This document shows positions 4,937 through 16,500 of a stretch of DNA of 18,397 bases, in pieces. The stretch spans positions 1 to 18,397 of the forward strand of contig JBBSVW010000054.1 in the NCBI GenBank assembly GCA_038046605.1. The letters are read 5' to 3'. This stretch comes from Candidatus Micrarchaeota archaeon. Lineage in GTDB: Archaea > Micrarchaeota > Micrarchaeia > Norongarragalinales > SBBD01. Each line of letters begins with the position of its first letter. Position 1 is the first letter of the stretch. The translations under genes and the position numbers were made by a program. Below the pieces are notes generated by a model that was not told the DNA's origin, ran no database searches, and saw only the letters and a list, made by a program, of their open reading frames with translations.

Positions 4937-5635
4937 TTAGCGAAGCGATTCCCAAAGGATTTCCGCACGGGAATCGACTTCAATTCCTTTTTCCGATATG
5001 GTAAAAGGCCTAACGCTCTTGTCGTTGTCCGTTCCCCTCATCTTCCTAACAAAAATCGAGCGGTGGGGCGGGAAGAAATACATCAGCACAACCCCATCGC
5101 ACAAGAACTCCTCCACCCCGAACCTGGAAAGATCATCCTTTTTCCCGGAGGTTTCGCAGGTTAGTAGGGTGGTCACATCCATTTTCCTAAGCTCCTCGAT
5201 AAGCGAATACATGGCGTACCTGATCTTGGAGGAATCATCAAGCCAGAGGGAAAACGCCGTAATTGAATCAATCACAAGGCGCTTTACTTTCATCTCCTTT
5301 GCCTTTTCAATTATCCTTCTCGTCTGCCCTTCTATGTCATCCTTCATGCCAAGCGAAGGCTCGAATTTGTATATTTTAAGCATGTCCTCCTTTTCCAGCG
5401 AAAGCAGGTCCCATTTGAATCGCTGCATGTTCCACCACATATTGTGCGGGCCTTCCTCGAGTGTTATGTACGCCCCTTTTTCCCCGTACAATTTTGCGCC
5501 GTTATATAGGTATTGCATGCAAAGTATGCTCTTCCCAGCTCCTGGCCCCCCGGAGATGAGTATGCTCGAACTTTCCGGGAACCCCCCTTCTATCAATTCG
5601 TCTAGGCCAGGTATTCCCGATTTAACGCGGTTCAT
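4937..5635 (-). CDS. KaiC/GvpD/RAD55-family RecA-like ATPase (single domain)
   Basis: RVKSGIPGLDELIEGG start, Walker A GGPGAGKS, YITLEE, Walker B RLVIDS, EEFLCDGV and KMRGT. GGGGAG SD upstream. Confidence 0.92.
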   Translation of the reverse strand: MNRVKSGIPGLDELIEGGFPESSSILISGGPGAGKSILCMQYLYNGAKLYGEKGAYITLEEGPHNMWWNMQRFKWDLLSLEKEDMLKIYKFEPSLGMKDDIEGQTRRIIEKAKEMKVKRLVIDSITAFSLWLDDSSKIRYAMYSLIEELRKMDVTTLLTCETSGKKDDLSRFGVEEFLCDGVVLMYFFPPHRSIFVRKMRGTDNDKSVRPFTISEKGIEVDSRAEILWESLR

Positions 5636-5644
5636 GTTGCTCCC

Positions 5645-6172
5645 CTAAAATTCAGGCTTTTTGATCCTTACCTTAAGTACCATCAGGATGGCTGTAATTA
5701 TCATTGCAAAAGGCGAAAGCCCCCTTGCGAAATGGAAGACCAGGACTAGAAGCATCGCCGCCGCCGGAATTGGCAGCCCAAAATATACCCCTTCCTCCTT
5801 TTGGATGTTGAATGCCGCAAGCCGGATCAGCCCGGCGCACACGTAGCAAAGTGAAAAAACCAGCGCCATGGGTGAATAATTGCCCGAAAGCACAATAGCC
5901 GCTGGCGCCACCCCAAATGAAATTATGTCGGCAAGGGAATCAAGCTCCCTGCCAAATTCATTCCCCTTGCGGGTATCCCTGGCCACCTGCCCGTCGAGAT
6001 AATCAAATGCGGCTGAGATGAATACGAAAACCACAGCTGCAACCGGATTGGAGGAGAGGGCATAGTAGATTGAAAGGAATCCGGAGGCGCCATTTGCCAG
6101 GGTCAGGAAATCCTTCGCTTCAAGCGACTCAACCGCATCGTGTAGCATAATACGGGGTAATGGTTTTGGCAT
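5645..6172 (-). CDS. pssA: CDP-alcohol phosphatidyltransferase, PssA/archaetidylserine synthase-like
   Basis: Signature DYLDGQVARxxxxGNEFGRELDSLAD followed by ISFGVAPA, IRLAAFN and FxGLPIPAAA, as in PssA-type enzymes. Multiple TM helices. Confidence 0.82.
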   Translation of the reverse strand: MPKPLPRIMLHDAVESLEAKDFLTLANGASGFLSIYYALSSNPVAAVVFVFISAAFDYLDGQVARDTRKGNEFGRELDSLADIISFGVAPAAIVLSGNYSPMALVFSLCYVCAGLIRLAAFNIQKEEGVYFGLPIPAAAMLLVLVFHFARGLSPFAMIITAILMVLKVRIKKPEF

Positions 6173-6190
6173 TAAAAAGGCTTACTTACG

Positions 6191-6946
6191 CTAAGCAAGC
6201 CCAAGCCTTGCGATTCTTTTCTTTTGGGCAACAAATGCTTTTTCATATTCCAATGCTCCCCGATCCATCAATTTGTGCGCAAGCTCATTTGCCTGCAATG
6301 AATTATTATCGGACAAATAATAGAGGTGGGAAAATTCCCTTCTAAGGAGTGCGAGGAGAGCGCCACGTTCCAATTTCCTTGCAAATTTGCTTGCAATGCG
6401 CCGTATCTGGGTAAAGTCGATAAGAAGCCCGCTTCCTCTTTTATCCACTATCATGTTCTGGTAGAGGTGGCCTTGAAGGTAGCCGGCTGCATGCAGCTTC
6501 CCAAGCGCTCTTGCGATCCCAAAAAACGTCCCCTCCTTCTTTTGGATTGGTACCGAATCATCAAACAAGTAATCCGAAAGAGGCCTGCATCCGCGTTTCC
6601 AGAGGGTAAGGTAGCTTGTGCCTTTGGGAGTCCTTATCATCGCAAATGGCGTTTCGACCACGGATGCATGCAAATCCGCGGCTTTTTGCATCGCTTTGAA
6701 ATTCCTTTCCTTGGGCAGGAATACCGGATCCATTTCCCGCCTCATTTTCCCTGTCACATGGCGCACCGCAAGAAGGCGGCCATTCAATTCGTGCACGTTT
6801 ACTAACGGATGCTGCCCCACCTGCTTTTTGGGCTTTTCACTTAGCGCTTTAAGTATTCCATCCGGTGATGTTTTTTCCCAGTGCAATACCTCCATTTCAC
6901 CTATTCTGGAGGTTTTCCATCTTATTGGCATACGATGTTTTACCAT
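6191..6946 (-). CDS. Divergent protein-kinase-like (Kdo/WaaP/Bud32-like fold) protein with a degenerate catalytic loop
   Basis: LLAVR (beta3), ERNF (alphaC), VETPFA, LGKLHAAGYLQGHLYQN and LLIDF appear in protein-kinase-like order, but the HGD loop reads QGH. Confidence 0.65.
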   Translation of the reverse strand: MVKHRMPIRWKTSRIGEMEVLHWEKTSPDGILKALSEKPKKQVGQHPLVNVHELNGRLLAVRHVTGKMRREMDPVFLPKERNFKAMQKAADLHASVVETPFAMIRTPKGTSYLTLWKRGCRPLSDYLFDDSVPIQKKEGTFFGIARALGKLHAAGYLQGHLYQNMIVDKRGSGLLIDFTQIRRIASKFARKLERGALLALLRREFSHLYYLSDNNSLQANELAHKLMDRGALEYEKAFVAQKKRIARLGLA

Positions 6947-7056
6947 TTTTGGGATTAATATTGGCTCCGCCCTTCCTTGGCACTCTTAAAAAACCCTTTT
7001 CAGTATAATCTATCCGGGCCTTACCGAAAAAAATGAAAGTTCGATTCGGGCTTGTA

Positions 7057-7153
7057 TTTGAACCTTTTCTTTCTCCTTCAGAAAGATTTGCCCTCCGGAA
7101 AAGAAAGATGGCAATTTGCCTTGAGGATAGAGTGGAAAAGGTTTGGAAAAGAA
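7057..7153 (+). other. tRNA intron at position 9/10 (97 nt, long hairpin)
   Basis: Terminal stem 7057-7070/7134-7147 (14 pairs including G.U) and inner TTGCC/GGCAA. Relaxed BHB: GGG/CTC outer helix, AA|G bulge, CTTG/AAAG core (3 bp plus G.A), TA|T at the 5' site. Confidence 0.72.
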
Positions 7154-7175
7154 GCTCAGCCTGGTCAGAGCGCCA

Positions 7176-7221
7176 ATGGACTATTAGGAGCGCTTCAAAC
7201 AAAACTAACTGTCCCGTGCAA
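7176..7221 (+). other. tRNA intron at position 29/30 (46 nt)
   Basis: Core helix GCGC(7170-7173)/GTGC(7216-7219), bulges CA|A and AA|G, outer helix AGA/TCT, inner GGAC/GTCC after a T.C mismatch. Confidence 0.85.
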
Positions 7222-7229
7222 GTCTTATA

Positions 7230-7266
7230 TGACGATATTGCAAAGCGCAATATTGCTCTCTAGGTG
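7230..7266 (+). other. tRNA intron at canonical position 37/38 (37 nt)
   Basis: Strict BHB: core CTTA(7224-7227)/TAGG(7261-7264), bulges TA|T and TG|A, flanking GA/TC and a CGATATTGC/GCAATATTG stem. Confidence 0.9.
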
Positions 7267-7302
7267 AACTGGATGTCCCGGGTTCAAATCCCGGCAGGCC
7301 CA

Positions 7303-7309
7303 TTTTTCT
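7303..7309 (+). terminator. Oligo-T tract after the tRNA
   Basis: TTTTTCT immediately after discriminator A7302, as expected for an archaeal terminator. Confidence 0.45.
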
Positions 7310-7330
7310 AATCAATTAGCCGGCGCTCTA

Positions 7331-8500
7331 TTATTTCTCCTCCAAAACTTCCTTGTAGAGCTCCTCATAACCTTTAGCCGAAAGGTCCCAGGTGAAATTG
7401 GTTTCGCACCTTTTCCTTGCATTTGCGCCCATTCTTCTTCTTGCCTTCTCATCCCTAAGCAATTTGAGCATGCTCTCCTTGATTTGCGAAGCATTCCGGC
7501 TTTCAAAGAGGAATCCGGATTCCTCCTGGATGATTTCAGGTATGCCCCCGATTTTTGTCCCAATAACCGGCTTTCCACTTGCCATCGCCTCGCAAAAGAC
7601 CATGCCAAAGGGTTCCCATACGCTAGCCAGCGCGAAGAATTCGCTTGCCGCGTAAAGTTCCGTCATGTCGGATTCAGGCATTTTTTCGGTGATGAAAATC
7701 ACGTCCTTCCCAAGCCCCAAATCCGAGGCATATTTTTTCAAATAGCCCTCAAGCGGGCCTTTGCCCAAAATTACGAGCGTCACATCCTTTTCCTCCTTGA
7801 CAACATCCGCAAAGGCCTTTAGAAGGTAAACAAAGCCCTTTTGGACCTGGAGCCTTGCAATTGAAAGGATGATCCTATCCTCGCCAAGGTTGTATTTCTT
7901 CCTGATATTCCCTTCCTTGTTTTTGGGGTTGTAAAGCACAGTATCGACTCCATTGTAAATTACGCGCTTTATGGCGGTCACATCCCTTGGGGCGGTTAAT
8001 TCCAGGGTATCCCTGCTGACCCCCGCAAGCGCGTGGACCGCCCGCATTGTCTGCCTTCCTAGTACGTCATCGTAAAGATTGCCAAATGTATCTGTTGCCC
8101 AGTCAATGCCCGTCAATCTGGCGTTGTGCAGTGTGAGGCCAATTGTTTTGCCTCCCAATCGCTTGATTAGTGCAACATCTAGGAGGGTGTAAAAAAACCT
8201 ATTGTGCATGTGGAAAATGTCGTGCTTGGGAATTTCCTTAATGAGTTCGGTTAGAAAAAGCGGCGAAACCGGCGCCGGTGGGGGCACCGGATAGGGCGTT
8301 TGGTAGAATACCTTGCAGGGGATGCGCTTGACCTTGATCCCATCCAGCTCCTCGTAAATGGGGGTGTTTGGCACCTGTGCGGTTAGGACGGTGACATCGT
8401 GCTTTTTTGCAAGCCTTCTGGAAACCTCCAACACATGCTTTTCCGTCCCTCCCAGGTAGGGGTGAAAGAATGGATTCAACATACATATATTCATTTGCAA
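7331..8500 (-). CDS. Glycosyltransferase family 4 (GT-B fold)
   Basis: FHPYLGGTE, LTLHN, VIYNGVD, IARLQVQKG, ILGKGPL and the EPFGMVFCEAMASGKPVI..IGGIPEII (E-x7-E) motif. Confidence 0.93.
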   Translation of the reverse strand: MQMNICMLNPFFHPYLGGTEKHVLEVSRRLAKKHDVTVLTAQVPNTPIYEELDGIKVKRIPCKVFYQTPYPVPPPAPVSPLFLTELIKEIPKHDIFHMHNRFFYTLLDVALIKRLGGKTIGLTLHNARLTGIDWATDTFGNLYDDVLGRQTMRAVHALAGVSRDTLELTAPRDVTAIKRVIYNGVDTVLYNPKNKEGNIRKKYNLGEDRIILSIARLQVQKGFVYLLKAFADVVKEEKDVTLVILGKGPLEGYLKKYASDLGLGKDVIFITEKMPESDMTELYAASEFFALASVWEPFGMVFCEAMASGKPVIGTKIGGIPEIIQEESGFLFESRNASQIKESMLKLLRDEKARRRMGANARKRCETNFTWDLSAKGYEELYKEVLEEK

Positions 8501-8820: not shown

Positions 8821-9087
8821 TCAGCCCTTCATGCTCTCCAGCTCGCTCATGAGGTTCCAGATCATTGTCCTTGCGTGCATTGGGAGATTGATGTCGCTTG
8901 AGACCTCATCAAGGGTGTAGATGACACTTCCAATTGCCAGGTCCGGATCGGTCCCCCCTTTAAGCTTTTGCTGCGCATTCTGGAGGTTTGACCTTACATT
9001 CCTTGGGATGGACGTATCCGTGACCATGAGTTCAAGCATCTGTGAAATTTTCTCCAGCTCCGACTTGTCGATTGGCATTTTAACCAC
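8821..9087 (-). CDS. UPF0147-family archaeal protein
   Basis: DTSIPRNVR and LDEVSSDINLPMHARTMIWNLMSELE are characteristic. Start is GTG 9087 or ATG 9078. Confidence 0.9.
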   Translation of the reverse strand: MVKMPIDKSELEKISQMLELMVTDTSIPRNVRSNLQNAQQKLKGGTDPDLAIGSVIYTLDEVSSDINLPMHARTMIWNLMSELESMKG

Positions 9088-9264
9088 ATTTTCCCCTAAA
9101 AGAATAAGTAGTATTCCTTATCCGAAATGAATTATTAAACCCTATGAAAAAAGCAAATTGTCGGGCAAATTATTGCAATTATTGAAATTGCGGATAAAAA
9201 ATTGCGCCAAAATCAATTCCTATCCTACTCCCCCCAAATCCCAATGGCCTAATCAATCAGCAGT

Positions 9265-10491
9265 TCAATATTTTATTATCAATTTATCCCCGATGCTTGC
9301 AATGCTCTCAAATCCAAAATCAATCTTTTGCCCTTTTTGCGTTTGCACAATAAGCGCCTCGGAATCCCTATTGACGCCCGTAATTTTGCCCAAAAAGCCG
9401 CCTATTTCAGTGTAAACCTCCTTGCCCTCCAATTTCATTGCGGAAATGATATTTCGCTTGAACTGCTTTGCCAGGTATATCACAAGGTACATGATTGCAA
9501 TTGTAAGCACTAGGGAATAGAAGAAATCCGCAAAGCTGATATTGCCAATCACCCACTCCGCGGCATTATTTGCAATCATCCAGAATAGCACCACTGCTGA
9601 AAACGAAACCGCAAAGCCAGGGAGCTTGTATCCCTTCTTGTCATTCCAGGTTTCGAGGAAGTTGCCCCCGATCAATAGGATGAGCGCTATTGGGAAAAGC
9701 AATAGGAAATCCTTAAGCGCAAAAGCTATGATTTTGGCGATATTGCCAACTCCCACCGCCTGCAATTCGGAAACCCTGGCAATTGCCAAATAGATTGATA
9801 TGATGATGAACGCTGCGGATGCAAAAAGGAAGATGAAGCTGACCCGCTCAACGGAAAATTCAGCCCTTGCAAATCTCCTAAGGATCGCTTCTTCCACCCC
9901 AAATCCCTTCAAAATGAGGTAGGCGCCAAAAATCCCAAAGAAAAAGCGCACTCCCGCCTCCTGGAATAGGAAGGTGAGCAATAATAGCAAACCCGGAATT
10001 CCAAACACAATCCTGGCAAACTGGGGCTCCTTCAATTTTTCCAATAGCACGAAATAGGTCTTCTCCAATTCCTTGCTCTGCTTGACGATGAGGGTTTTGA
10101 CCGAATTGACCTTCACCCTGCTTTGTATGAGCGGCAATACCTGCTCATCAGATGCCCCATCTGAAACGAATATGCATGCTTCAGGCTTGAAATCATCAAT
10201 GATTTTTTCCAATTGCTTGACAACCTCCCTATCGGCGTAATACCCAAGCCTTGCGCTTCCGGTGATTGTTGCAACCTCTGCTGTATAACCCTGCTTTTTG
10301 AGATCGTCGTACGTCTTAACCGCCTGGAAGATTGTATTGCCATCGGTATCCCCTGGATCTGCGAGTGAAAATTTGGTTGCCGCATCGATATTGCGCTTCC
10401 TTCCAATGACCGGCCCTTTCATCCTGGCCTTTTCATACAAATCATTGTCCACATCTACGCACAAAACCAGCAGGCGCTTTGCATCGGGCAT
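9265..10491 (-). CDS. DUF373-family membrane protein with a C-terminal PRC-barrel-like extension
   Basis: LVLCVDVDNDL, PVIGR, ADPGDTDGN, SDGASDEQVLPLIQSR and VKQSKELEKTYF, then several TM helices. The C-terminus LEGKEVYTEIGGFLGKI...IASIGDKLII resembles a PRC barrel. GGGAG SD upstream. Confidence 0.88.
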   Translation of the reverse strand: MPDAKRLLVLCVDVDNDLYEKARMKGPVIGRKRNIDAATKFSLADPGDTDGNTIFQAVKTYDDLKKQGYTAEVATITGSARLGYYADREVVKQLEKIIDDFKPEACIFVSDGASDEQVLPLIQSRVKVNSVKTLIVKQSKELEKTYFVLLEKLKEPQFARIVFGIPGLLLLLTFLFQEAGVRFFFGIFGAYLILKGFGVEEAILRRFARAEFSVERVSFIFLFASAAFIIISIYLAIARVSELQAVGVGNIAKIIAFALKDFLLLFPIALILLIGGNFLETWNDKKGYKLPGFAVSFSAVVLFWMIANNAAEWVIGNISFADFFYSLVLTIAIMYLVIYLAKQFKRNIISAMKLEGKEVYTEIGGFLGKITGVNRDSEALIVQTQKGQKIDFGFESIASIGDKLIIKY

Positions 10492-13500: not shown

Positions 13501-16500
13501 TAGGATCCTGTGCGCCTGAGAATGTTCCGCCCATGCCATATTGTTGATTAAATTGTTGGTAATATCCACTAGTTCTTTGATCATTGATATTGAACTGTGA
13601 TTGCGTCGGGTTAAATCCGCCGCCATAAACTCCTTGGGGCGCAAGCCCGCCGGGAACCCTTCCAAATTGCATCATGTTGGGCCCCACCTGGATTTTGTAT
13701 GCGCTGCTGTATGCAATCTGCGCGCTCTTTCCGGAACTTGGGTCAAAGAAGCTCACGGTGCTCTTTGCCAAATAACCCACAAAGCGCTGCGCAAAATAGT
13801 TCAAATTCTTGTACCTGCAGGCGGCTTCCGGATCGCCAACAATCACAACCCCCCTAACCGATGTGCGGGTTGGATCCCTGTAATTGTAAACTCCGGGCTG
13901 GCCAAATTTGAATGAGTAGGATTGGCCTGGCTTTATCACATCCTTGCTAAATAGCAGCTTGCTTGATATGAGCTTGTCATCGCCGGTTGCAAAGGATGCA
14001 ACCCCGTGATATTTGCCATCCATATTGATCCATGTGAGCGTCGAATTCGCATCGATCCGGATGCTTGCCGGCTCAAAACCAAGGTCGGTTATTAAAACCG
14101 TGTTGCTGGAGCCGGATAGGGATTTCTTTGGCCCAATAACCTTTGCCTGAACGGTTTCGGTTGCAGCGCCAGAAATTGTTATCAGAACCCTTCCGGTTTG
14201 CAGCTGGGTTTTATTCAGGCCAACGGAAACCTGGGTGTTATTTGCAACATAAGCTACCGTATCGGTGTAATATGGGTGCGCGTTGTAATCGGCCTTGATG
14301 AATATCGATTTTGTCGACCTATAGGTATCGCAATCCACCTCCACGAAATTATTAATCCTAAGGTTTGCATTTGGCTCCGAGCTTCGGATTTCGCAATCAT
14401 ACGTTGAGCTGTTGCCAACCAGGTAGGCAATCGAGTAATATAGGTCGTTCTTTTCCAGGTCCTCCGTGAGCTCAATTGCAAAATTCTCCGGAAGGTCGGG
14501 ATATTGCGAAAATGCCTCGCACGCATTTGCCACGCAGAATTTCCCTCCTCCGCACTCCTCATCTGTGGTGCATGAAACCTTGCAATAATTATTCCTGCAA
14601 ACCTTCCCATCAGCGCAATCCCCATCCTTTGTGCATTCGGGAACGATGCATGATTTGGTTGAGGGATCGCAAATGTATCCGGTGTCACAAGGATTATCCT
14701 GAGAGCATGCGATCTTTTCGCATTTATCCTCTACGCATTCATAGCCGGCGCTGCAGGGGTTGGCATTTGTGCAGGTGCTTGGCTGGCAAGCGCCGCTTAC
14801 GCATTCCTCATCATCGTCGCAATCATTTGAATTAGTGCAAACCTCCCCCGGCGGAACCGATGGCCTTGGGGACACTGTCGGGGCAGGTGAGGGCGAAGGA
14901 ACGCGCTTCTTGCAAACCGCCCCCGCATCAAAATCGCAGAAATCGCCGGTTTTGCATTGGGCATCGCTAAGGCACACCTTATCGAGCACTTCGCAATTCA
15001 CTTTTGTTGTAATTTTCAAATTCGCATGCGCTCCTCCAGCCTGCGAATCAAAACTCAAATCGCAAAATGTGCCTTGCTTTGTGGGATTTAGCACAAGTTC
15101 CTTTGTTCCCTTTCCCTTTAGTGAAAATGTCGCCTGGTTGCCATTTGCAATTACCCCATCGCCCATTATTTCGAGGCACGAGCTTTTTGCCAGCACATAA
15201 ATATCCGCAGAAAGGAGGTTGGTAATTTCAACGCTTCCGCCATCGCAAGTGAGTGTGAGGGCGTCCGAGCTGGATTCAAGGAAATCATTAAGCCTTGAAG
15301 TGATCTGCTTTTCAGAAGGCTTGAACCCTTCGCGTTTTGCAACAATTGTGAATGTGCCAGTGCTTAGCGGGTGCACTTGCTTGAAAACATATTTGCCATC
15401 CCTTCCGGAATTGTCATTTCCATTTCCAATAATTGATTCGGGCGTGTTCCCCTCAAAAACTGAGCTTTCGTCCTCCTCAATTGAAACCGTTGCATCGCTA
15501 ACCGGCTCGCCATCAAGCGCATTCGAGAGAATGACCGTAATCCGCCCATCCTCATTTGCCTGCAAATCAATTGGTGAAACGCCCATTTCAAATTCATTTT
15601 CACCTGTAATCTGAACGGTGCTCTTCAATGTGTGAATAACCCCCGAAGCATCCCCGAATTCGAGCATCACTTTTGAGAAGGCGGATGGGAGTTTGCCCTT
15701 TGCAGAAATATCCCCGCTAACCGCGCTGCCCTCTCCAAAACCTTCCACATCGAATGTGTATTCGGCGGAGCCACTGGCATCCCCGCTTGAATCGGCAAAA
15801 TTGAATGCATTGAATATGATTTCATCATCATCTGAAATTTTGAAATACGGCGCATCAAAGGCCTTCAATGCGCGCCCAGAAATAAATGCCTTGAACGGCT
15901 CGCCAGTTGTTGCAGAAAAGCCCTTTGCAACCTTTGCCTGCGCCTTCCCGAAAAGCATGGACATGCAAATGCCACCTTTGCAGGAGAATTTGTCCTCGGT
16001 CACCTTGAATGTTGTCCCATTGAGCGCAGCATAGCACGAATCCTTATCTGCGTTTTTCTCCTCGCTTCCAAGGCCGGCATCCTCCGGAACCCTCGTGAAT
16101 ATTTTGCCTGCAGCCGCATATCCCCTATATTCAAAACTTACGCTGCTTCCTGATTTTGCCTCCGGTTTCACAAACACTTTTACGATGATGCCCTTGGTAC
16201 CCGCCTGCTTTTTGTACTCGTAATTGAGCCACTTGGATAGAGAATCGGATGAATCGCTGTCCCCGGAAATGTCGGATGTGCAATCGGCTGAGGGCTTGTA
16301 TGTGATTCCCTTTGTTATGATTGCATCGGATGGCTTTTCATAGCCCGAAATTGCCGCATAATCCTCATCCGCGGATCCGAAGCCGCTTCCCGAAACCTTA
16401 AGGAAAATCCCCCCCTTTTCGCTTCCTTGCGGGATGTTTAAGGTGAATTTTGCCAAATAATAAGAGCCCCTTATGAGGGATGGGATTGCTGTCGAGTATA

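Follow-up and report, generated by a model that had tools for sequence, protein, structure and literature searches.

Within the 18,397-nt stretch of DNA analysed here, contig JBBSVW010000054.1 of an ultrasmall, uncultivated Candidatus Micrarchaeota archaeon (hereafter the window), positions 7048-7302 of the plus strand are very probably a functional gene for tRNA-Ile(UAU), the decoder of AUA, in which three introns would each be cut at a BHB motif by a single epsilon2 endonuclease and the exons joined by RtcB. The division of the gene into four exons by three introns is confirmed, and 180 of its 255 nucleotides are intervening sequence (Table 1).

Table 1. Parts of the tRNA-Ile(UAU) locus; coordinates are positions of the window, and tRNA positions are those of the mature molecule.
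Feature	Coordinates	Strand	Length	Description
Exon 1	7048..7056	+	9 nt	tRNA positions 1-9: 5' acceptor strand, U8, A9; pairs with 7295-7301
Intron 1	7057..7153	+	97 nt	tRNA position 9/10; relaxed BHB
Intron 1 core	7059..7120	+		copy of the repeat that occurs within or next to tRNA genes of the genus; nhmmer E 2.1e-17
Exon 2	7154..7175	+	22 nt	tRNA positions 10-29: D arm, G26, start of the anticodon stem
Intron 2	7176..7221	+	46 nt	tRNA position 29/30; near-strict BHB
Exon 3	7222..7229	+	8 nt	tRNA positions 30-37; anticodon TAT at 7226-7228
Intron 3	7230..7266	+	37 nt	canonical tRNA position 37/38; strict 3-4-3 BHB
Exon 4	7267..7302	+	36 nt	tRNA positions 38-73: 3' anticodon stem, variable loop, T arm, 3' acceptor strand, discriminator A
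Upstream block	7033..7042	+	10 nt	kept in the three closest same-genus orthologues (L002, L003, L004), by eye
Five-T run	7303..7307	+		immediately 3' of the discriminator

The mature tRNA and its place in decoding

A sequence-only reading of this locus had claimed that exons of 9, 22, 8 and 36 nt join into a paired 75-nt cloverleaf. Its coordinates proved exact, and the spliced product has the expected identity: ARAGORN calls the coordinate-joined 75-mer tRNA-Ile(tat), with all four stems paired and one G.U in the acceptor stem. The anticodon UAU lies in a 7-nt loop with U33 and A37 (7224-7229 plus 7267), and CCA is not encoded at the end of exon 4. Two of the junctions can be placed at either of two neighbouring sites (8/9 or 9/10, and 28/29 or 29/30) with an identical product, and for these the BHB geometry points to 9/10 and 29/30. 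No convincing TATA-like box was found at the usual distance upstream of the gene; the conserved upstream block is a possible leader or promoter-proximal element. Archaeal transcription ends at T runs, and the five-T run behind exon 4 is likely to act as the transcription stop.

ARAGORN and Infernal with RF00005, the two scanners used, both miss this gene, as had been anticipated for standard scanners. On the raw locus ARAGORN makes no call with its intron mode either on or off, the window as a whole has no Rfam match at gathering score, and the locus is absent from the 24 RF00005 matches that Infernal returns for the genome at E<=1. At a permissive Rfam threshold, the T-arm and acceptor half of the raw locus appears as a weak match to the tmRNA model (17.4 bits) and the T-arm half also as mascRNA-like, next to lncRNA, snoRNA and sRNA matches at chance level. 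A C/D-box RNA within the intron was considered and rejected, the sR60 match reaching only 12 bits (E 8.1). In the whole genome, which is 90.7% complete, 21 tRNA genes are found by ARAGORN and 15 by the Rfam tRNA model above its cut-off, many of its tRNA genes being hidden.

The codon concerned is common: ATA accounts for 4,857 codons in 513 long open reading frames, equal to 22.8% of the isoleucine codons or 16.9 per 1000 codons, and it is present at least once in 508 of these frames. With 23% of the isoleucine codons being ATA, tRNA-Ile(UAU) is needed. The alternative CAU route to AUA decoding requires TiaS, and the TiaS_FLD domain (PF08489) has no match in the genome and none above cut-off in any of the 68 genomes of the order, with all four archaeal controls positive. 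An intact tRNA-Ile(UAU) elsewhere had been named as the finding that would speak against the locus; beyond the generic T arm, no other locus in the genome matches the mature tRNA, and there is no Ile tRNA whatever among ARAGORN's calls for the genome. At 90.7% completeness, the absence of TiaS or of a second gene from this single genome is no proof, and it is the order-wide absence of TiaS that carries the point. According to the accessible text of PMC3239211, tRNA-Ile(UAU) is present in the ARMAN lineages, with tRNA-Ile(CAU) and TiaS absent. The only decoder found for a codon used in nearly every gene is therefore invisible to ARAGORN and to the Rfam tRNA model. As an AUA decoder can be hidden from scanners in this way, gene calls and statements on "missing tRNAs" for Micrarchaeota MAGs are unreliable unless multi-intron genes are searched for.

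Splice junctions and splicing enzymes

That every junction falls at the cut point of a BHB-like motif had likewise been claimed, and this holds, with a strict motif at 37/38, a near-strict one at 29/30 and a relaxed 5' site at 9/10. Each of the three introns has its two predicted cut sites in bulges, one on either strand of a 4-bp helix, with the cut expected after the second bulge base. The central helix of intron 1 (7051-7054 with 7148-7151) has three of four pairs and one G.A, and is accompanied by an outer helix (7048-7050 with 7155-7157), a 3' bulge at 7152-7154 and an inner helix of at least 10 pairs starting from 7057/7147; its 5' bulge measures only 2 nt, because the first intron base pairs. 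In intron 2 all four central pairs form (7170-7173 with 7216-7219, one of them G.U), with bulges at 7174-7176 and 7220-7222, an outer helix of 7167-7169 with 7223-7225, and an inner helix of 7178-7181 with 7211-7214 that is preceded by one T.C mismatch at the first inner pair. Intron 3 also has four of four central pairs (7224-7227 with 7261-7264) and bulges at 7228-7230 and 7265-7267; its inner helix (7231-7232 with 7259-7260) is followed by a 7-bp hairpin, 7235-7241 with 7247-7253.

This geometry is rare by chance. When intervals of the same lengths were placed at random in the genome and scored on the central, outer and inner helix, the observed helix values were reached by 0 of 200,000 placements for intron 1, by 27 for intron 2 and by 127 for intron 3. 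Comparison with relatives adds to this. Covariation, including a full double change in G014, is seen in the central helix of intron 2, whose inner helix is of different sequence yet paired in G003, G005, G008 and G010. In intron 3 the central helix varies on its intron strand and still has four of four pairs in 19 of 21 orthologues (three of four in G014 and G036).

None of the three motifs lies fully within the minimum-energy fold of the whole precursor (nearest-neighbour model), which contains 5 of 14 motif pairs for intron 1, 4 of 11 for intron 2 and 0 of 8 for intron 3; enforcing the motifs costs 11.0, 4.9 and 10.7 kcal/mol over that fold. Bases 31-33 are drawn into the motif of intron 2 and are required by that of intron 3 as well, so that the two compete for positions 32-33, and the two strands of the D stem are borrowed by the motifs of introns 1 and 2. 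Because of these shared bases the three motifs cannot form all at once, and splicing would have to be stepwise with refolding.

The sequence-only reading had also supposed a broad-specificity splicing endonuclease. Typing of endA agrees with this, as the sole EndA is of the epsilon2 type. It is encoded by a single open reading frame of 388 aa (G000:C20:292-1458) with the Pfam domain order N, N, C, C, and no second EndA gene was found in the genome. Among solved structures the best match is 4fz2 (E 3.5e-126; residues 14-388 here aligned with 15-387 there), the ARMAN-2 epsilon2 enzyme, and the protein is closest to the EndA proteins of MAGs labelled Norongarragalinales. The catalytic triad Y236, H251 and K282 is aligned with, and identical to, the ARMAN-2 residues named in the available portion of PMC3488258, and R275 and D357 likewise align with residues named there; D357 is conserved and is required for dimer formation of the ARMAN-2 enzyme. 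The specificity loop GTYK..H occurs in both proteins, and K161 of ARMAN-2 corresponds to K162 here, so that the broad-specificity lysine is kept. These features match those of an epsilon2-type three-unit enzyme, in which one polypeptide has a pseudo-unit at the N terminus, then the catalytic alpha unit, and a beta-like unit at the C terminus. The ARMAN-2 EndA was shown in vitro to cut relaxed motifs as well as strict ones (PMC3239211, in the part available). RtcB is encoded at G000:C28:21742-23046 (E 2.4e-171). The published link between epsilon2 endonucleases and disrupted tRNA genes is hereby extended from ARMAN-2 to another order, and to genes with three introns, or with four or five in sister species.

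In the proposed route of expression, a primary transcript would carry the introns at 9/10, 29/30 and 37/38, and a single epsilon2-type endonuclease would cut each of them at its BHB motif, step by step and with refolding between the steps. RtcB would then ligate the exons, CCA would be added afterwards, and the mature tRNA-Ile(UAU) would be aminoacylated and read AUA. Taken together, the interpretation given in the sequence-only reading is supported.

Alternatively, the gene may be real and its introns removed by another route, either as self-splicing group I or II introns or through trans-joining of separate pieces. Group I introns are known from archaea, Micrarchaeota among them (PMC6125680, as far as its accessible part goes). 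However, the introns at this locus, with their 37-97 nt, are far under ribozyme size, Rfam detects neither a ribozyme core nor any other family at gathering score across the window, the pieces are collinear on one strand within 255 nt, and all three junctions fit the endonuclease motif. Membership of the group I or II introns is rejected on the size and the Rfam result, and I consider removal by any such route extremely improbable.

Orthologues and the repeat in intron 1

A spliced-alignment search over 28 fetched loci yielded 25 orthologues, the locus described here included; the three loci left out are another tRNA with the repeat (L009), a gene cut by a contig end (L010) and a poor alignment (L030). 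After in-silico splicing all 25 give tRNA-Ile(tat). The same mature tRNA is found in 24 related genomes with 1 to 5 introns, and its exons are identical in 69-75 of 75-76 columns within the family. Seven of the orthologues have one intron, ten have two, the gene here has three, six have four, and one (G006) has five. The four-intron count for G012 and the positions of the second intron in G021, G011 and G024 are script output alone, and for G006 the 53/54 boundary scores four of four central pairs, while the 59/60 motif was read by eye from the sequence. The intron at 37/38 is present in every one of the 25, and the eight bases of exon 3 are invariant among them. Ten of the 21 cloverleaf pairs vary, seven of them with compensatory double changes, and 416 of 420 cells hold standard pairs, counts which lean towards the cloverleaf because the orthologue alignments were fitted to the mature sequence of the gene here; 6-67 and 7-66 of the acceptor stem are among the pairs with compensatory double changes. 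The Rfam tRNA model (gathering score 29) recognizes all seven tested orthologues that have one or two introns, at 39.7-56.5 bits.

Allowing three deletions opens a large search space, and exons 1 and 3 are merely 9 and 8 nt long, so one could suppose that the cloverleaf was assembled from unrelated sequence by means of six free boundaries. The comparative data already refute such a chance fit, the probability of which is practically nil: the same mature sequence recurs in 24 other genomes that differ in intron content, exons 1 and 2, or 1 to 3, are contiguous in relatives where Rfam scores them as tRNA, the stems covary, and the junction geometry is rare under random placement.

Exons and introns have diverged to very different degrees. 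Against the six orthologues from the same genus, the exons of the gene here are identical in 73-75 of 76 columns, and exon 2 is identical or nearly so, whereas identity amounts to 12-81 of 97 columns in intron 1, 19-28 of 52-194 in intron 2 and 19-27 of 37-38 in intron 3. Among relatives the introns vary in sequence, length and presence; within the genus, intron 1 measures 97, 92, 94, 86, 31, 30 and 30 nt, and intron 2 ranges from 46 to 194 nt. This pattern bears on the two frames that are open at the locus in this genome, at 7033-7263 on the plus strand (76 aa) and at 6897-7250 on the minus strand (117 aa), either of which might be taken for a protein-coding gene. However, the same-genus orthologues differ here by indels that are not multiples of three (intron 1 being 30-97 nt long and intron 2 46-194 nt), the plus frame in L002 stops after about 30 codons (by eye), and conservation is concentrated in the four tRNA exons rather than along a frame, which leaves the protein-coding explanation a negligible probability.

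Intron 1 belongs to a genus-restricted repeat that is found in and beside tRNA genes. Its core recurs in sister Ile genes, within their introns at 29/30 and 53/54, as well as in further tRNA genes of G001-G004 and G006, and copies read by eye also lie just outside tRNA genes, in both orientations. Searching with the three introns by blastn-short gave no second copy in the genome; diverged copies were detected only with an nhmmer profile built from 15 repeat copies, the one in intron 1 included. These occur at 30 further places in the genome, 15 of which are within 250 nt of a detectable tRNA, a zone that makes up 1.1% of the genome. The repeat thereby shows what characterizes transposing tRNA-intron families, namely sequence common to different genes and positions.

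Could such a copy have disabled the gene, leaving a decaying relic of a former tRNA-Ile(UAU) gene that is no longer spliced to a working tRNA? In favour of this are the relaxed 5' splice site of intron 1, the 11 kcal/mol by which its motif lies above the minimum-energy fold, and the fact that the repeat, being present outside tRNA genes as well, behaves like an inserted element. However, the same insertion sits at the same site in G001, G006 and G002 (70-81 of 97 columns identical) with exons that are identical in 73-75 of 76 columns, and G003, G004 and G005 carry a different intron of 30-31 nt at the exact site with the same 3' bulge and outer helix. Moreover, no other AUA decoder and no TiaS were found, yet ATA is used in 508 of the 513 long frames, and the epsilon2 enzyme is documented to cut relaxed motifs (PMC3239211, accessible portion). 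I therefore regard a relic as very unlikely, and a functional gene remains the preferred reading.

A single orthologous gene with one, two, three, four and five introns in one order, several of them from one repeat family, offers a compact system for studying intron gain. As a tentative explanation, which I consider plausible rather than probable, a structured repeat of about 55-65 nt may integrate as DNA within tRNA genes or right next to them, in either orientation, and be tolerated as an intron where its ends complete a BHB motif; the orthologous tRNA-Ile(UAU) genes would then form a time series of element-driven intron gain, permitted by the epsilon2 endonuclease. Under this reading the series would run from one intron in other families through two in sister genera and three here to four or five in sister species. 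If true, repeat insertion would answer, in one lineage, how archaeal tRNA introns arrive, a question left open by a 2026 study of Asgard archaea in the portion of the preprint available (bioRxiv 10.64898/2026.10.13.758758).

Comparison with known systems

The novelty of these observations is modest, as disrupted tRNAs, tRNA-Ile(UAU) and the epsilon2 EndA have been published for ARMAN-2, and up to five introns per gene for Asgard archaea. No paper was found on a Micrarchaeota tRNA gene with at least three introns, but the supplementary tables of PMC3239211, PMC5829648 and PMC11291895 may list such genes.

A close parallel is ARMAN-2 (Candidatus Micrarchaeum acidiphilum; Fujishima et al. 2011, PMC3239211, and Hirata et al. 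2012, PMC3488258, both as partly accessible). It belongs to the same phylum and shares the isoacceptor, the decoding strategy (a UAU anticodon and no TiaS) and the three-unit type of endonuclease; both 37/38 introns are canonical with a strict motif, and both genomes hold many disrupted tRNA genes. However, the ARMAN-2 gene is described with one 25-nt intron, at 37/38 (accessible text of PMC3239211), whereas the gene here is interrupted at 9/10 and 29/30 as well, by introns that exceed the one of ARMAN-2 in length (37-97 nt over all three). In vitro cleavage has been demonstrated for ARMAN-2, while the present gene is known from its sequence.

Three-intron tRNA genes and transposing intron families were reportedly described for the Thermoproteales by Sugahara and co-workers in 2008 and by Fujishima and co-workers in 2010. 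As in the present case, single genes have as many as three BHB introns, at non-canonical positions, the endonuclease is of broad specificity, and related intron sequences occur in different tRNA genes and positions. The Thermoproteales are, however, of another phylum and use an (alpha-beta)2 endonuclease rather than the epsilon2 type, and the shared repeat of the genus studied here also occurs just outside tRNA genes, in both orientations.

The nuclear tRNA-Ile(UAU) gene of the red alga Cyanidioschyzon merolae is likewise interrupted by three introns. They have hBHBh' motifs, one lies at 37/38, and their stepwise removal was shown by RT-PCR, with the 37/38 intron leaving last (PMC3728597, in its available part). 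The competing motifs lead to the same prediction for the gene here. The C. merolae gene is eukaryotic, though, and its other introns lie in the D stem and the T loop instead of at 9/10 and 29/30; its expression and splicing intermediates have been shown, whereas the evidence on the archaeal gene comes from its sequence.

According to the accessible parts of PMC11291895 and bioRxiv 10.64898/2026.10.13.758758, most tRNA genes of Asgard archaea are interrupted, many of the introns are missed by annotation, and D-arm insertions are overlooked. Up to five introns are reported there in one gene, as in the G006 orthologue, and the statement of the sequence-only reading that three-intron tRNAs are mainly known from Thermoproteales does not stand in view of these reports. 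The Asgard archaea are another lineage with another endonuclease, and in the genus studied here it is one repeat family that supplies many of the introns.

A tRNA-Ile(UAU) gene in four exons

The exons and introns of the gene lie exactly where the sequence-only reading had placed them (window 6900-7450), and the introns, 97, 46 and 37 nt long, account for 180 of the 255 nt of the locus. Joined by coordinates, the exons are identified by ARAGORN as a tRNA-Ile(tat) of 75 bases with every stem paired, which bears out the fully paired cloverleaf claimed earlier. Two scanners, ARAGORN and Rfam, also miss the gene, in line with that reading's prediction for standard scanners: ARAGORN reports no tRNA in the raw locus with intron mode on or off, Rfam at its gathering score finds no family anywhere in the whole window, and the 24 RF00005 matches in the genome (E<=1) do not include the locus. 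Rfam detects only the 3' half of the raw locus, as a weak match to the tmRNA model. Five Ts directly follow the discriminator, and CCA is not encoded at the 3' end (window 6900-7450 inspected).

The surrounding genes are ordinary and lie throughout on the minus strand (4937-8500). The ten-base block immediately upstream of the gene is retained in the three closest orthologues, and a purine-rich short word resembling it is found ahead of other tRNA-like genes in this genome. Several tRNA genes in different genomes are followed by a palindrome of G and C runs, which is absent 3' of the tRNA-Ile(UAU) gene in the window; the palindrome may act as a terminator hairpin or belong to another repeat.

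Coordinates of the gene, its splice motifs and neighbours in the window, and of related elements elsewhere (G000, this genome; C, contig; L003 and L007, loci in relatives)
Feature	Position	Strand	Remark
Upstream block	7033-7042		ten bases
Exon 1	7048-7056	+	5' acceptor strand (7 nt), then U8, A9
Exon 2	7154-7175	+	whole D arm, G26, anticodon-stem bases 1-3
Exon 3	7222-7229	+	final two stem bases, six loop bases; TAT at 7226-7228
Exon 4	7267-7302	+	A38, 3' anticodon-stem strand, 5-nt variable loop, T arm, 3' acceptor strand, discriminator A
Intron 1, outer helix	7048-7050 with 7155-7157	+	regular
Intron 1, 3' bulge	7152-7154	+	regular
Intron 2, outer helix	7167-7169 with 7223-7225	+	
Intron 2, central helix	7170-7173 with 7216-7219	+	4/4 pairs
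Intron 2, bulges	7174-7176 and 7220-7222	+	
Intron 3, central helix	7224-7227 with 7261-7264	+	4/4 pairs
Intron 3, bulges	7228-7230 and 7265-7267	+	
KaiC-like ATPase gene	4937-5635	minus	neighbour
CDP-alcohol phosphatidyltransferase gene	5645-6172	minus	neighbour
251-aa ORF	6191-6946	minus	neighbour, without Pfam family
GT4 glycosyltransferase gene	7331-8500	minus	neighbour
tRNA-Val(CAC)-like gene	G000 C61 ~9001-9245		introns at 37/38 and T loop
Clusters of intron-repeat copies	G000 C26 ~14229-14800; C27 ~6070-6330 and ~20990-21260		2-3 diverged copies each
Second repeat family	G000 C26 ~14447-14540; C27 ~6095-6150; C61 ~9140-9215		
G/C-run palindrome	G000 C61 ~9246-9275; C26 ~14720-14745; L003 and L007		in L003 and L007 just 3' of tRNA

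If an intact tRNA-Ile(UAU) elsewhere supplied the function, this locus could be silent. However, no second locus in the genome matches the mature sequence, a generic T arm excepted, and ARAGORN finds no isoleucine tRNA anywhere in it. TiaS (PF08489), the enzyme of the alternative CAU route, has no match in this genome and none above cut-off in the 68 genomes of the order, while it is detected in all four archaeal controls. ATA is in use, at 16.9 per 1000 codons (22.8% of isoleucine codons) and in 508 of the 513 ORFs of at least 300 codons. With no TiaS and no other AUA decoder found, a silent locus is therefore very unlikely. The combination of a UAU-type tRNA without detectable TiaS is like that of the ARMAN lineages, which PMC3239211 describes as having tRNA-Ile(UAU) and lacking tRNA-Ile(CAU) and TiaS.

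Orthologues with one to five introns

The 271-nt locus was searched by BLAST against 40 relatives; together with follow-up fetches this gave 28 loci, and a script made a spliced alignment of the mature sequence to each. I left out a different tRNA carrying the intron-1 repeat (L009), a locus cut by a contig end (L010) and a poorly aligned one (L030). After in-silico splicing, all 25 retained loci, this gene counted, are tRNA-Ile(tat) by ARAGORN. Seven genomes, from two other families of the order, have a single intron between tRNA positions 37 and 38 (37/38). Ten have two; among these are the four from sister genera of the same family, with introns at 29/30 or 30/31 and at 37/38. Three are found only in this gene, four in six genomes (five of the same genus; four carry the additional intron at 59/60, G001 carries it at 53/54), and five in one, G006. 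Thus the sister-species orthologues (L002, L003, L004, L015, L016, L017) exceed this gene in intron number; L003 (G006 contig C17; gene at about 1501-1905 of the locus) has introns at 9/10, 29/30, 37/38 and 53/54 and a 23-nt T-loop intron. Where the 9/10 or 29/30 intron is missing, the flanking exons are contiguous. All seven intron-poor orthologues tested are recognised by the Rfam tRNA model (gathering score 29), those with one intron at 51-56.5 bits and those with two at 39.7-46.3.

The cloverleaf might have arisen by chance, and two open frames overlap the locus, which would allow a protein-coding reading. Against the six same-genus orthologues, the exons are identical in 73-75 of 76 aligned columns, intron 1 in 12-81 of 97, intron 2 in 19-28 of 52-194 and intron 3 in 19-27 of 37-38, and intron length differences within the genus are not multiples of three. 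The 20 distinct mature sequences differ at 10 of the 21 stem pairs, with compensatory double changes at 7, and standard pairs occupy 416 of 420 cells in an alignment that was fitted to this gene and somewhat favours the structure. As exons are conserved, introns vary and stems covary among the orthologues, both chance and the overlapping frames are ruled out. The three-intron gene is thus confirmed as real, and its interpretation in the sequence-only reading is supported.

The 37/38 intron occurs in all 25 orthologues and also in published ARMAN-2; loop bases 32-35, two of which belong to the anticodon, are always paired with the 3' end of this intron. One may speculate that its universal retention points to a step that depends on the intron, for instance modification of the anticodon.

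Splice motifs and the splicing endonuclease

A script scored all junctions of 21 orthologues for the strict 3-4-3 bulge-helix-bulge (BHB) geometry, with the cut set after the second bulge base. The earlier claim that each junction falls at a BHB cut point holds with strict geometry for intron 3 and, with one inner mismatch, for intron 2; intron 1 is relaxed and irregular on its 5' side. For intron 3 the anticodon stem serves as outer helix, and a two-pair inner helix leads into a 7-bp hairpin; relatives differ in the intron strand of the central helix, and still 19 of 21 orthologues keep 4/4 pairs, with 3/4 in G014 and G036. The inner helix of intron 2 continues with four pairs beyond its mismatch, and pairing there is kept in G003, G005, G008 and G010 in very different sequences. 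G014 carries a full double change in the central helix, and in G009 the geometry is shifted one base downstream, to 30/31. In intron 1 the 5' bulge has two bases because the first intron base pairs, the central helix consists of G.A and three pairs (G002 and G004 have G.U there instead), and the inner helix has at least 10 pairs. Among 200,000 random same-length intervals of the genome, 0, 27 and 127 reach the values observed for introns 1, 2 and 3. The fourth intron at 59/60 in four sister orthologues also has a strict motif.

A nearest-neighbour model of the whole precursor favours the acceptor stem, the T arm and separate intron hairpins, and forcing the motifs of introns 1, 2 and 3 costs 11.0, 4.9 and 10.7 kcal/mol. 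The motifs of introns 2 and 3 cannot coexist, because positions 31-33 and 32-35 overlap. The three introns would be removed stepwise, with the precursor refolding between steps; such stepwise splicing has been demonstrated by experiment in Cyanidioschyzon merolae, whose tRNA-Ile(UAU) also has three introns (PMC3728597).

RtcB and a sole splicing endonuclease are encoded in the genome (1.64 Mb, 106 contigs, 90.7% complete). The endonuclease, EndA (C20:292-1458), has 388 aa, and its single frame contains two Pfam domains of the N-terminal type and two of the catalytic type. Among solved structures, its best relative is 4fz2 (E 3.5e-126, residues 14 to 388 aligned), the ARMAN-2 epsilon2 enzyme in apo form (PMC12397907). 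Aligned to 4fz2, EndA keeps residues named in PMC3488258: the catalytic Y236, H251 and K282, R275, D357, the C-terminal tryptophan (W385, W384 in ARMAN-2) and the specificity-loop lysine (K162, K161 in ARMAN-2). An epsilon2-type enzyme cleaves strict and relaxed motifs (PMC3239211), and the typing of endA points to the broad-specificity enzyme proposed from the sequence. In named assemblies, the nearest EndA genes (85-89% identity) belong to MAGs that carry the label Candidatus Norongarragalinales or Candidatus Micrarchaeota; the best 80 of 120 related stretches are mostly labelled Micrarchaeota.

A repeat that supplies introns, and precedents for the gene

BLAST matches to the core of intron 1 (7059-7120) occur in five of the six other genomes of the genus (3, 0, 1, 8, 1 and 2 matches), and are absent from the 4 genomes in the family's other genera. 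I classified by eye ten fetched copies outside the Ile genes. Five are intervening sequences within other tRNA genes, three in the same orientation and two reversed, the latter apparently in the same tRNA gene of two genomes; four lie 2-3 bases beyond a tRNA 5' or 3' end and one upstream of a protein gene. Some extragenic copies are 2-3 bases 3' of the discriminator, others reversed and two bases before the 5' end, e.g. by an uninterrupted tRNA-Leu(CAG). The copies outside tRNA coding sequence include L033, L037, L032, L035 and L038 (G002:C25, C73, C3, C42 and C59). In sister Ile genes, introns 2 and 4 consist of related copies. A search of this genome with a profile built from 15 copies gives 30 further places with diverged copies (E<=1); 15 of them lie within 250 nt of a tRNA visible to ARAGORN or Rfam, DNA that makes up 1.1% of the genome, and several of the remainder lie within tRNA-like genes missed by both. 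The T-loop introns come from a second, distinct repeat family, seen in both orientations, to which the 59/60 introns (L004, L015, L016, L017) belong.

The tRNA-Val(CAC)-like gene on C61, recognised by eye, is called neither by ARAGORN nor by RF00005 at E<=1. The clustered copies on C26 and C27 separate D-arm, T-arm and acceptor pieces that are recognisable by eye, and these clusters are probably additional multi-intron tRNA genes hidden from scanners.

All elements of the three-intron gene have precedent. ARMAN-2 is described as combining an epsilon2 enzyme with heavily disrupted tRNA genes (56% disrupted), and as many as five intervening sequences per gene are reported for Asgard archaea (preprint 10.64898/2026.10.13.758758). 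New are a tRNA-Ile(UAU) gene with three introns in a second order of Micrarchaeota, its four- and five-intron sister genes, and an intron-supplying repeat restricted to one genus. A literature search returned no paper describing a Micrarchaeota tRNA gene with at least three introns; supplementary ARMAN and Methanopyrus tRNA tables may hold cases. The main value lies in annotation and in a model for intron gain. The intron-1 repeat resembles the intron transposition reported for Thermoproteales, and contrasts with the Asgard study, in which no general route of arrival emerged.
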